From IMG/VR virus record IMGVR_UViG_2778261513_000004: a DNA stretch of 42,950 nt; one strand, 5' to 3'. Position 1 is the first letter of the stretch. Each line of letters begins with the position of its first letter. The position numbers were made by a program. The DNA comes from a virus. Lineage: Duplodnaviria; Heunggongvirae; Uroviricota; Caudoviricetes. This document shows positions 24,001 through 27,000 of the stretch, piece after piece.

Positions 24001-27000
24001 CAGATATTGTTCTGCGGCATCACTCAGGGCTGGCGTATGTTCCCGGCCGACCGAGTCACACAGATAATCAACGAAACCGGACACAAGTTTTCGTTCACGA
24101 GAGGTGATCGCCCCACCGACAGGAGTCCAGTAATCGAATCCGAGTTGCAGGAGTTTGAAAAAACGCTTGTGAAATGCGTAGTTACGAACGCGCTTAAAAT
24201 CAGCGTGTATCCACTCACCTATTTTTATTTGATGCAAGAATTCGCAACTCTCCGGTGTTGCCGGGAGCAGTAATCCAGAAGAGGTATGTTTGATCAGTTG
24301 TATATGTGCCATCGGCTTTCTCCGGTGGCACGGTGTTACTCAGCAGGGGGTCAACCCTGCGCTGAATTGTAGATGAGTTCAATCGTCTTCAAAAGCAGAA
24401 AAGCCAGCTTTTAATCCAATTTCTTTTAATGTCCGTAATGATGTGACAAATTCATCTTCACGCAACATAAATCCGTCCGTCACATGCCCATTCAAGAGAT
24501 ATATTAACATAGCCCCACTAGGCTGTTGCAAAGCCCGTGAGCAATGAATGCAGTAACAACTAATAATTTCCCCATTTTCAACGCGCACAGCATAGAGACC
24601 ATCTTTATTAAAAATTTTGCGCAACTTCTTGAAATCCATAAACAGAAATTTTCCAGATTAATAGCGTTCCCCTGAAGGGTCCATCCCTCTTCTCCCTGCG
24701 CGCTAACTAAGCAAACACGATTCTATTTACAACAGTCAGTCCCTCAAGACTTACTGCTAAAAGAGTACACAAAAAGCTAATTTCTCCACCACAACAAAAA
24801 ACCCGCCGAAGCGGGTAAGTACGGGTGCGTTGAGGATGCCTGACACATCAGAGGTGGCGGGGGATTTCTCCCCCGCCGGGTCTCTTACTCCTCAGGTTCG
24901 TAAGCTGTGAAGACAGCGACCTCCGTCTGGCCGGTTCGGATTCGTACCTCGCAGAGGTCTTTCCTCGTTACCAGTGCCGTCACAACGACGGTTAAACAGA
25001 TGACGATCAGGGCGATTAACATCGCCTTTTGCTGCTTCATAGCCTGCTTCTCCTTGACCTTTTGGTCGGTAAGAGGCTAATCTACGTATGCAAAGCATAG
25101 ATGTGGCCTCAGATTAATGTTAAGCGTCTTGCCGGACGCGTAATGTTAACTGGGGCTTTTCTCTATCTGCCTTTGGTGTTCATGCCCGAGGCAGACAGCC
25201 TCAAGCACCCGCAGCTATTCTACTTAACTCCCGTTACCTCGCCAATATGAAATCAATCAGAAAGGTGATCCATAAGAACAATAGCAAGACCATAGATTGC
25301 CATCACAAACGCAATAGCCAGTGCACATTTCGCAACCAGCACGTTAACCTCCTGCATTTGACACTCGCATATGCTGATAAATATGTGGATGTCTCACTGG
25401 TGACTCAATAAAACTATTTGGTGTACTTATTCTATTTTTTCTGTGCAACACAACAAACCGTCATCACCAGCACTTCCTTAAATGCGCTAAGTCAGACACA
25501 AGCCAACATTTTAGTCCGCTTTGAGCGAAGAGCAGACATTGCGAAGAACAAAGTGGTAATATGATTCGGATGGTCACGTAATATTGATGCAATGAAGTTA
25601 AGTAATTTCAAGCTGGATAATTTTACATCTGTTCTGATAAAAGAATTCAATAATTAAGTATTTAAACACAATCTTCATTTCAGTCTATTAAATCTGAGGA
25701 GCTGTAAATTAAACACTTACTTTTCGATGAATACCCAATACAGTTCAAAGAGAAACTTGCTCAAAAATATCTCAGCCTTGAATTTTAAATTGAATGGTCG
25801 CACCGATTTTTCGAGAAAAAGATTTGATAGTATACTGTTTACATGATATCAACAATAATCTATTGATTATTACACAAAAAGCTCCTTAAGCATGGAGCTT
25901 TTATGTGATGCAATGAATTAATTCGAATTTAAAGAAGTTAAAATACGTCTATAATAATTAATTGTTGCTCCAGAAAGATAATCACCAGGAGCTTCAGAAA
26001 AACTTGATAATGCTATGGTTTTAAATAAATTGTTGTTTTTTGTCTCACTATTTCCTATTTGATATTGTTTATAGAACATATGCGTAACTTCGAGTACGTA
26101 TGACTCAAAAGCATGACCTTGTATTAAATAACCAGGGTGAGAATAAAATGGCTCATGCAGAAATAATAAGGCACATCTGCTTTCTTGTGTATTACCAATG
26201 TTGAATCCTTTCCATTTGGATTTTAATCTTTGTATACACTCATCTTTAATTATTAATTCCCCATCTCTTTCATGAAAAAGGATACCACATAATCCATCAA
26301 GATTAAACATTGCCATGTTATTAATTCTGGATATAAGGTTCAGCTTATGTATATATGCAACCTTTCTCTCAAGTTTCTTCCACTTATTTATAAATATGTC
26401 TACATCATCATTATTTGGGCAAAATATTCTTAGTATTTTCTTTAATAGTGCCGTTGTCCATAAATCGTTCTCAAAACTATATCCATGTGTAAAGTGAACA
26501 AAGTTATATAGCTGATCATTAATACCCAATGCTTCATTATGATCACGATCCATAAATACAATGTGATTATTTTCCGTATGCTGGGTTCCATTAATCCTAG
26601 CAGCAATCTGCTTTAAATTCTCTTTTCCACCTTCTATTCTAATTTCATAACGACCATCTAAGTAATTTTTTAACAATGCATTGTAGAAGATATAATCAGG
26701 AAGCTTTTTAATATCTGGGCTATTACCTTTACCTTCAACATGAACAATATAAGATACATCTCTCAACAGAGATTCAGCAATCAAACCTGCCGGCGTTCTT
26801 GATATGAAGTTAGCATCCATTGTTATTTATACCCTTATAGCCGACTCTCTTCTTCTCCCTATAATATCAGGAGAATGAGTAGCTAAAATAAATTGAGCTT
26901 TAGGATTTATCTTTACCAAAGCGTCAACAATTTTATCCTGCCACGTCACATGTAGCGAAACCTCAGGTTCATCTGCGATATATATAATATCTTTATTATC

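Follow-up and report, generated by a model that had tools for sequence, protein, structure and literature searches.

A predicted complete hok/mok/sok type I toxin–antitoxin module of the HokD/HokW subgroup in a Rac-like prophage

The hok toxin gene and the overlapping mok frame

The sequence considered here (the window) is the whole 42,950-nucleotide (nt) stretch of the IMG/VR virus record IMGVR_UViG_2778261513_000004, which belongs to Caudoviricetes. A toxin gene, hok, is located on its minus strand at 24885..25040 and codes for a 51-amino-acid (aa) protein of the HokD/HokW type, as judged from the Pfam family PF01848 and from identity to annotated Hok proteins. Together with an overlapping reading frame, mok, and a predicted antisense RNA gene, sok, it very probably constitutes a complete canonical hok/mok/sok type I toxin–antitoxin (TA) module of the HokD/HokW subgroup, lying in a Rac-like prophage. 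The initial annotation had recognised, within a prophage, a type I toxin of the hok/gef family overlapped by a mok frame, and this core is borne out by Pfam, Rfam, alignments and RNA folds. The full module covers approximately 24795-25245 and is therefore larger than the span noted at first (24885-25098), which includes just the two open reading frames (ORFs). None of the sequence features found speaks against the hok/mok/sok identity.

The hok product, as given by the ORF listing, is MKQQKAMLIALIVICLTVVVTALVTRKDLCEVRIRTGQTEVAVFTAYEPEE (51 aa), and the coordinates and strand proposed earlier for this ORF proved correct. It matches the HOK_GEF profile (PF01848) with 82.9 bits (cut-off 22, E=1.2e-23), residues 6-47 being aligned to profile positions 1-42 out of 42. 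The characteristic features of the family, Cys15, Cys30 and the LVTRKDLCEV stretch, are present. The proteins used for comparison were translations of annotated records. The product agrees in all 51 positions with Hok of ‘phage Rac’ (E. coli 442/2) and a HokD-annotated protein of E. coli NADC1036, and has a single difference (I19V; 50/51) from K-12 HokD/RelF. Identity is lower for HokW of phage 933W (46/51), HokC/Gef (42/51), R1-type Hok (23/51) and HokB (19/51). On sequence, the nearest named paralogue is HokD (the HokD/RelF or HokW group), not Gef/HokC. The early suggestion of near-identity to Gef/HokC is thus right as to the Hok/Gef family (82.9 bits) and wrong as to the paralogue, since only 42 of 51 residues are shared with HokC/Gef versus 50 with HokD. 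In addition to the 50/51 identity, the gene occupies the same position as hokD/relF, beside rem and upstream of Q, as expected for a member of this orthologue group. HokW was shown to be toxic and localised at the inner membrane (PMC8621323), and HokD was used among the toxic controls in a recent survey (10.1101/2025.08.07.668861).

The small size of the ORFs is the only reason to suspect chance open frames or a decayed pseudogene, and the probability of such an explanation is negligible. The initial annotation had asked whether hok carries a frameshift or a stop relative to functional hok genes; the protein alignment reveals neither within the 51-aa ORF. Chance or decay is ruled out by E-values of about 1e-23 with the protein as well as the RNA model and by the identity to annotated Hok proteins, and contradicted as well by the extreme folding z-score and the covariation described below.

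A Shine-Dalgarno (SD) sequence of hok, AAGGAG, can be read at 25050..25055 (minus strand), 9 nt before the hok ATG; it is paired in the fold of the full-length mRNA. The second ORF, mok, is located at 24892..25098 of the minus strand, comprises 68 codons, overlaps hok and stops 7 nt short of the hok stop codon, in agreement with the 68-aa mok-like frame with an upstream start that had been reported before. Since its ATG is located 58 nt before the hok ATG (ORF listing), mok and hok are read in different frames, mok being +1 relative to hok. Coordinate transfer aligns the ATG at 25098 with the annotated starts of mokW, mokC, mokB and mok of Rac 442/2. A GAGG SD sequence at 25107..25110 (minus strand) precedes it by 8 nt, so the mok part of the canonical arrangement is complete.

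To follow the conservation of the module, loci found by scanning species-representative genomes (36 in total) were used to build an alignment of 28 sequences: the window, 4 reference loci and 23 loci from Escherichia, Shigella, Kluyvera, Pseudocitrobacter, Photorhabdus, Pantoea and unnamed Enterobacteriaceae. Decayed copies were kept, including the decayed locus L037 and L025, a leaderless locus of the relBE type. The ATG in the mok position with GAGG upstream is retained in 26 of the 28 loci, and the ORF that starts there always crosses the hok start, in whichever frame. This frame is the same as that of hok in 14 loci, +1 (the type found in the window) in 11 and +2 in one; the in-frame and +1 types differ by single-base insertions or deletions within the 57-58-nt interval between the mok and hok starts. 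A varying frame combined with constant read-through therefore suggests selection on translation through this region and not on the Mok peptide. Mok can be dismissed as a conserved protein: only the start, the SD sequence and the read-through are kept. The conserved read-through fits translational coupling from mok to hok.

Organisation of the hok mRNA

A consensus scan has found a promoter for the hok mRNA on the minus strand at 25217..25245 (TTGGCG, a 17-nt spacer and TAGAAT). Its -10 box aligns with the TAGAAT, TATAAT or TAGGAT boxes of 933W, hokC and hokB, and it places the transcript start at about 25210, which corresponds to position 1 of the Rfam model RF01794. The match to this model (25210..25035, minus strand) covers all 157 model positions with 105.2 bits (gathering threshold 59, E=5e-23), and the annotated loci match RF01794 in the same orientation, as expected of a leader of this type. 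At the other end, a terminator scan has identified an intrinsic terminator at 24795..24816 of the minus strand, consisting of ACCCGCTTCGGCGGGT followed by TTTTTGTTGT. The hairpin and T-run take up 24816..24801 downstream of both ORFs, so the minus-strand terminator mentioned in the initial annotation is real. With its 5' end set by Rfam and the promoter and its 3' end by the terminator, the predicted full-length hok mRNA is 416 nt long (24795..25210, minus strand).

The sok promoter and the ucb and dcb boxes, which an alignment with hok/gef loci had been proposed to locate, are present, as are tac and fbi. All the mRNA elements named in this paragraph are given in minus-strand orientation. The tac element (GGGUGCUUGAGG, 25199..25210) makes up the 5' end of the mRNA; its partner is fbi in the minimum free energy (MFE) structure of the full-length molecule and ucb in that of the truncated one. 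In folds of the first 28-45 nt, tac and the sequence directly downstream form the metastable 5' hairpin of the nascent RNA (25182..25208). In the full-length fold, the partner of the ucb anti-SD box (AGCCCCAG, 25150..25157) is the mok SD region; in the truncated fold it is tac, and there the dcb box (GCCUC, 25073..25077) pairs with the GAGGC of the mok SD. The fbi element (CCUCAACGCACCC, 24823..24835) is located just before the terminator; in the unconstrained MFE structure, its helix with tac comprises 12 base pairs (bp) and one bulge. Between hok and fbi, MFE folds contain a GC-rich hairpin of the 3' untranslated region (UTR), GGCGGGGGA-gaaa-UCCCCCGCC (24856..24877), which is 87-95% paired across loci. 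It is likely to be the 3' end protector of the processed mRNA, by analogy with its R1 counterpart, which protects the truncated hok mRNA and marks the processed end (PMC9841398).

Alternative folds of the mRNA

Folding was unconstrained throughout: the mRNA was folded from 25210 to 24795 or truncated at 24837 or 24845. The full-length mRNA has an MFE of -176.1 kcal/mol (z = -8.96 against 100 shuffles). In this structure 25210-25199 is paired with 24835-24823, which is the tac/fbi helix, closing the molecule end to end; GCC and CAG of the ucb box pair with the CUG and GGC flanking the mok GAGG, and the hok SD region is paired to dcb plus the adjoining 3' bases. The R1 full-length mRNA is described in the same terms, with tac/fbi end-pairing and ucb masking the mok SD (PMC9841398).

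Truncation at either position switches the MFE structure to tac/ucb and mok SD/dcb (GAGGC/GCCUC) pairing, so that removal of about 40 nt from the 3' end suffices for the active-form fold. After 3' trimming, R1 mRNA adopts the tac/ucb and mok SD/dcb pairs and becomes translatable and able to bind Sok (PMC9841398). The first 28-45 nt of the window mRNA fold as an 11-bp hairpin that sequesters tac; a metastable hairpin likewise holds tac in the nascent R1 chain (PMC9841398). In these folding models, all three published R1 states emerge from the window mRNA without any guidance. As all published hok mRNA elements can be recognised in an unconstrained fold, the locus can serve as a completely mapped example.

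Both states of this switch are conserved. In the 28-sequence alignment the tac/fbi helix is paired in 89.5% of cells and has four compensatory pairs (e.g., U-A to C-G in 6 sequences and G-C to A-U in 6); tac/ucb is paired in 94.3% with one compensatory pair, the mok SD/dcb helix, mostly invariant, in 98.6% with one, and the metastable 5' hairpin in 94.3% with two. Controls with slid partners reach only about 31-50%, or some 45% in round terms, far below all four helices. Overall, helices of the two switch states are 86-99% paired across loci, and the same tac positions covary with both of their alternative partners.

The genome scan also returned hokD-type sequences with 93-98% aa identity on tiny contigs assigned to Acinetobacter idrijaensis (L018, 275 bp) and Xanthomonas pisi (L021, 431 bp), and a near-identical hokD-type copy within the same identity range on a 2995-bp contig of a metagenome-assembled genome (L043). 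The most likely source of these three copies is contamination of the assemblies by E. coli or phage DNA, and the organisms concerned would not be true hosts.

The Sok antisense RNA

Annotated sokW, sokC and sokB map to 25090..25160/25166 of the window, which defines a predicted Sok antisense RNA of about 71-77 nt on the plus strand (25090..25166). Its promoter is located at 25054..25083 of the same strand, with a -35 box TTGACC (25054-25059), an 18-nt spacer and a -10 box TAATCT (25078-25083). The -10 box corresponds in position to TAACCT of sokW, which Takada et al. replaced to obtain a promoter-less construct, as can be read from their mutagenic primer YO-421 (PMC8621323). Boxes of the TTGACC/TTGCC and TAAYCT/TATCCT types are kept in 27 of the 28 loci. 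The possibility that an antisense promoter is missing, which the initial annotation had regarded as damaging to its proposal, can be rejected on these grounds: the homologue of the mutated sokW box is present and conserved.

The MFE structure of Sok contains a long terminator-like hairpin, which is followed by UUUUCUCU. At 77 nt the MFE is -31.8 kcal/mol (z = -4.9). The 5' region of Sok has about 15 single-stranded nt when the RNA is taken as 71 nt long; at 77 nt it is partly paired with the 3' end and 7 nt remain free. The 5' tail complements the region around the mok start, and the predicted convergent gene has the properties of a sok gene, namely a promoter of its own and complementarity to the mok initiation region.

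RF01794 is named ‘sok antitoxin’, and yet it matches the hok-sense leader at all the annotated loci checked (hokC, hokB, 933W and an R1-type plasmid). As annotated Sok RNAs at known loci lie opposite to the strand matched by RF01794, the model should be understood as the hok leader holding the Sok target. A strand call taken from the Rfam hit would put Sok on the wrong strand; a minus-strand Sok was considered and rejected for the same reason, because sokC, sokB and sokW all oppose the RF01794 strand, and Sok is assigned to the plus strand.

Relation to known hok loci

The locus is already known and brings no new biology: annotations exist for near-identical copies, and experiments have characterised a close homologue. 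Of 5426 complete E. coli genomes, 4726 contain a match to the 901-bp region around it, with NADC1036 (NZ_CP076264; 99.2%) ranking first. Among phage records, Rac 442/2 (MN652886), which carries mok and hok annotations, shares 98.9% DNA identity, the temperate phages HannyBb, Evi, mEp460_ev081 and Tritos about 93-94%, and 933W and VT2-Sakai, with annotated hokW, mokW and sokW, 92.2%. Beyond annotation, the window has little significance as one more intact member of a widespread E. coli family.

Rac 442/2 and NADC1036 are the closest relatives. Both have the identical Hok (51/51) and an identical 68-aa Mok which is out of frame as in the window, and both carry the module in the same position, directly upstream of the rem-like ORF, DUF1367, YbcO and Q. 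They differ from the window solely in the cargo upstream of hok, where the window has a PARIS-like gene pair and a 326-aa ORF.

hokW-mokW-sokW of 933W and of Sakai prophage 5 resembles the window in its long Sok hairpin (sokW is 71 nt), promoter boxes, tac, fbi and 3' hairpin. There are several differences. mokW is in frame with hokW owing to a 1-nt deletion in the spacer between dcb and the hok SD, and the same deletion turns the Sok -35 box TTGACC into TTGCC. The two Hok proteins also differ in their C-terminal residues (VDYESEK against TAYEPEE). The 933W locus is located beyond the tail-fibre gene near the genome end, whereas hok of the window is in the nin region. hokW-sokW is the only prophage hok/sok proven experimentally as a type I TA: it is toxic, is neutralised by Sok and depends partly on RNase III and Hfq (PMC8621323).

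hokC/gef has a related product (Hok 42/51), a leader matching the same Rfam model and Sok at the homologous position. Unlike the window module, it is a core-chromosome paralogue with mokC annotated in frame and a Sok of 59 nt. In K-12, hokC is cut by IS186 20 bp after its stop codon and consequently has no fbi.

The hokD (relF) gene of the K-12 prophage Qin shares with the window a 3' UTR with fbi, the protective hairpin and the terminator, as well as the neighbouring rem. The alignment of the two sequences begins about 16 nt ahead of the hok ATG and includes the terminator; before this point K-12 has lost the promoter, tac, ucb, the mok start and the Sok gene, its leader being replaced by relBE, while the window retains the intact form. 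K-12 hok genes other than hokB lack components through insertion sequence (IS) elements or rearrangements (PMC12214031). With an intact leader on one side and a leaderless gene on the other, the window can be regarded as the intact form of the K-12 remnant, showing the likely appearance of the ancestor of the truncated hokD/relF.

Most chromosomal hok loci have been proposed to be selfish or relic passengers that do not measurably affect host or phage, and the window module might be another of them, structurally intact and physiologically silent. The disruption of hokA, hokC, hokD and hokE in K-12 (PMC12214031), the loss of the whole leader of K-12 hokD and the presence of decayed L037 and leaderless L025 among the 28 loci agree with this explanation. 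We nevertheless consider it unlikely: in the window all regulatory elements are intact, with compensatory evolution, the module is retained while the neighbouring cargo is swapped, and the 92%-identical hokW-sokW has measurable phenotypes (PMC8621323).

The classical system, R1 hok/sok (parB), has the same elements, two alternative folds, metastable hairpin, mok coupling and convergent Sok as the window. It differs in the protein (23 of 51 Hok residues shared) and in Sok, the stem of which is longer in the window, with a 16-nt insertion relative to the Rfam consensus. Moreover, R1 is a plasmid and the window replicon is a single-copy prophage, so the selective role of the module is likely to differ from that in R1. 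On plasmids this role is addiction, which relies on a stable mRNA and a labile Sok (PMC9841398); in the window it would mean stabilising the prophage or a segment of it by killing the cells that lose it. The delayed-activation architecture required for this is complete, and some phage records label the homologue ‘phage maintenance protein’. However, a single-copy chromosomal prophage is not subject to missegregation loss, excision normally leads to lytic growth, when cell killing gains nothing, and chromosomal loci put to the test are reported to lack post-segregational killing (10.1101/2025.08.07.668861). Addiction thus appears a rather doubtful explanation for the window module.

Prophage context and the neighbouring cargo

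The prophage setting stated in the initial annotation is confirmed by replication, Q and lysis genes and an integrase. On the minus strand, a lambda-P-like replication protein gene (31390-32055) is followed by DUF1627, DUF977, cargo genes and then hok; downstream of hok are the rem-like ORF (24379-24639), DUF1367, YbcO, the Q antiterminator (22884-23426) and then toxin/lysis genes, holins and endolysin. The right end of the window contains the integrase gene (41715..42950), an excisionase-like ORF and a RecT-like gene. By this gene content, the element is a Rac-like lambdoid prophage with hok in the nin region, between the replication genes and Q. hok is co-directional with the early-right operon.

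The cargo directly upstream of hok includes a PARIS-like pair (25918-28029, minus strand): an AriA-like AAA_21 ATPase (26827-28029; PADLOC AriA, 139.9 bits) and, between it and the hok module, an AriB-like DUF4435 protein (25918-26820). A 326-aa ORF without a family match is located at 28800-29780, also on the minus strand. In PADLOC-DB, no match was found for Hok, the rem-like ORF or a 34-aa ORF upstream of hok; only the AriA-like and AriB-like neighbours match.

Going upstream from the hok start, related prophages stay homologous for about 330 bp; homology breaks at approximately 25542. Beyond the break, NADC1036 carries SIR2, a hypothetical gene and AbiH, and Rac 442/2 five small hypothetical ORFs. 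The same slot is occupied by relBE in K-12 Qin and by other genes in Tritos and HannyBb, while hok stays. The region between the replication genes and hok looks like a hot spot for defence or moron genes with hok as its fixed edge. As such an edge in Rac/Qin-type prophages, hok can help to delimit these variable defence-cargo islands.

A stability or abortive-infection function next to a defence-like island had been proposed for the toxin at first. According to the latter idea, the module would act with, or back up, the PARIS-like AriA/AriB pair: an infecting phage would stop host transcription, and the ensuing decay of Sok would allow Hok to kill the cell. The position of the AriA-like and AriB-like genes directly upstream of hok is in line with it, as is the presence of SIR2 and AbiH in the same slot of relatives, and R1 hok/sok on a high-copy plasmid is reported to lower T4 plating and plaque size (cited in PMC8621323). 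On the other hand, the cargo is swapped among relatives (SIR2 with AbiH, small ORFs, relBE or other genes) and hok is constant, therefore adjacency to defence genes is not evidence of joint function and indicates a shared cargo hot spot instead. A genome-wide survey has found hok to be enriched in prophages and not near defence systems (bioRxiv 10.1101/2025.08.07.668861), Hok itself has no PADLOC match, and the sole tested prophage homologue promoted phage release and did not block it (PMC8621323). A functional unit with the PARIS-like island is accordingly unsupported, the cargo being different in every relative examined, and we regard abortive infection as improbable. For hokW-sokW, the only close homologue studied experimentally, the result speaks for assistance in lysis and phage release upon induction and not for stability or abortive infection (PMC8621323).

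Proposed mechanism and role

From sequence and structure, a molecular mechanism can be proposed with high confidence, the experiments behind it having been made in homologues. A constitutive promoter would give rise to the stable 416-nt mRNA, in which the 5' hairpin would hide tac during synthesis. In the finished molecule, tac is predicted to pair with fbi, ucb to mask the ribosome-binding site of mok and the hok SD to be paired as well, leaving the mRNA untranslated and a poor target for Sok. Slow 3' trimming would then drop the terminator and fbi, upon which tac would turn to ucb and the mok SD would enter a hairpin with dcb. As long as the short-lived Sok, transcribed convergently from 25090, is available, it would bind the open mRNA and lead to its cleavage by RNase III. 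Once Sok has decayed, the open mRNA would be translated, ribosomes reading mok handing translation over to hok, and Hok would enter the inner membrane and collapse the membrane potential. The conserved UACG hairpin at Tyr47 (see below) could add a layer of TadA editing (Tyr to Cys).

As to the role, we tentatively favour, at somewhat less than an even chance, membrane damage that is coupled to prophage induction and speeds lysis and phage release, by analogy with hokW-sokW. In that system SokW is lost on induction in a RecA-dependent manner and HokW appears about 1 h before the endolysin; deletion of hokW-sokW delays growth arrest and halves the amount of released phage, so the locus aids Sp5 release (PMC8621323).

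Several points weigh against extending this picture, and the mechanism described above, to the window module. The TAATCT -10 box and the 18-nt spacer of the sok promoter are weak by consensus, and a simple consensus promoter scan picked up no plus-strand promoter for sok, thus missing it. The 3' processing site of the hok mRNA is inferred solely from the analogy with R1. HokW was tested at another phage position, beyond the tail-fibre gene, and with an in-frame mok, so its role may not transfer. Finally, some chromosomal hok loci are reported to show neither post-segregational killing nor a response to rifampicin (cited in 10.1101/2025.08.07.668861); intact elements consequently do not guarantee a phenotype.

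Coupling to induction could be achieved by transcriptional interference, and we speculate on it here as a rather remote option. hok has the same direction as the N-antiterminated early-right transcript (replication genes, hok and Q are all on the minus strand), and a simple terminator scan between the AriB-like gene and hok has found no terminator. Read-through induced from pR would therefore hit the convergent sok promoter head-on and might silence sok. If so, the read-through would also add hok-sense RNA, the interference would explain the RecA-dependent loss of Sok and the early appearance of Hok seen for hokW-sokW, and both a 29-34-codon ORF at 25253-25357 and the Tyr47 editing site could be extra layers of the module.

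Candidate TadA editing site

A UACG hairpin surrounds the Tyr47 codon of hok at 24893..24907 (minus strand), constituting a candidate site of adenosine-to-inosine (A-to-I) editing by TadA with A at 24901 as the target and a Tyr to Cys change as the outcome. UACG itself (24902-24899) is enclosed in a 3-bp CAG/CUG stem (24907-24893). TACGAA is present in 27 of the 28 loci and the stem is 98.8% paired with two covarying pairs; its middle pair differs between window-type and hokC-type sequences by changes at synonymous third positions. TadA editing of hokC, hokD and hokE is reported to recode this Tyr to Cys, K-12 hokD being edited at 6%, while HokA and HokB encode Cys directly at the equivalent position, Cys46 (PMC12214031). 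The window thus has the signature of TadA-edited hok mRNAs, a UACG Tyr codon at the Cys46-equivalent position in a small hairpin. The hairpin matches the reported site and may be edited, which would be a known feature of the family.

Other genes of the prophage

The ORF upstream of hok mentioned above is hydrophobic, has 34 codons (MQEVNVLVAKCALAIAFVMAIYGLAIVLMDHLSD, 25253-25357, minus strand) and ends 8 nt before the -35 box of the hok promoter. A counterpart with about 76-79% aa conservation immediately precedes hok in Tritos, Evi, mEp460_ev081 and HannyBb. The ATG is not retained, in contrast to an AGGAGG/AGGAGA box and an in-frame GTG at codon 6. Neither Pfam nor PADLOC gives a match for this ORF, and substitutions are spread evenly over codon positions, which makes it a candidate gene at most.

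A second type I pair is located near the right end of the window, with a RalR/Lar-like ORF at 41008-41217 (plus strand) and the RalA small RNA at 41216-41394 (minus strand; RF02694, 197 bits versus a threshold of 170).

Two further loci code for toxin homologues. A scabin-like ADP-ribosyltransferase resembling pertussis toxin S1 is encoded at 21770-22495 (minus strand) and is followed by an ORF with weak similarity to the pertussis S2/S3 B subunits (21238-21687). The pair (21238-22495) sits between Q and the holins, the position of Stx in Stx phages, and looks like an AB5 toxin moron of the ArtAB or Plt type. A full-length homologue of the heat-labile enterotoxin A chain is encoded at 18891-19670 (minus strand; PF01375, 390.6 bits), just downstream of the GH108 endolysin gene, and the prophage therefore appears to carry a second AB-type toxin. 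In NADC1036, the enterotoxin A-chain homologue is followed by a small ‘enterotoxin’ ORF.

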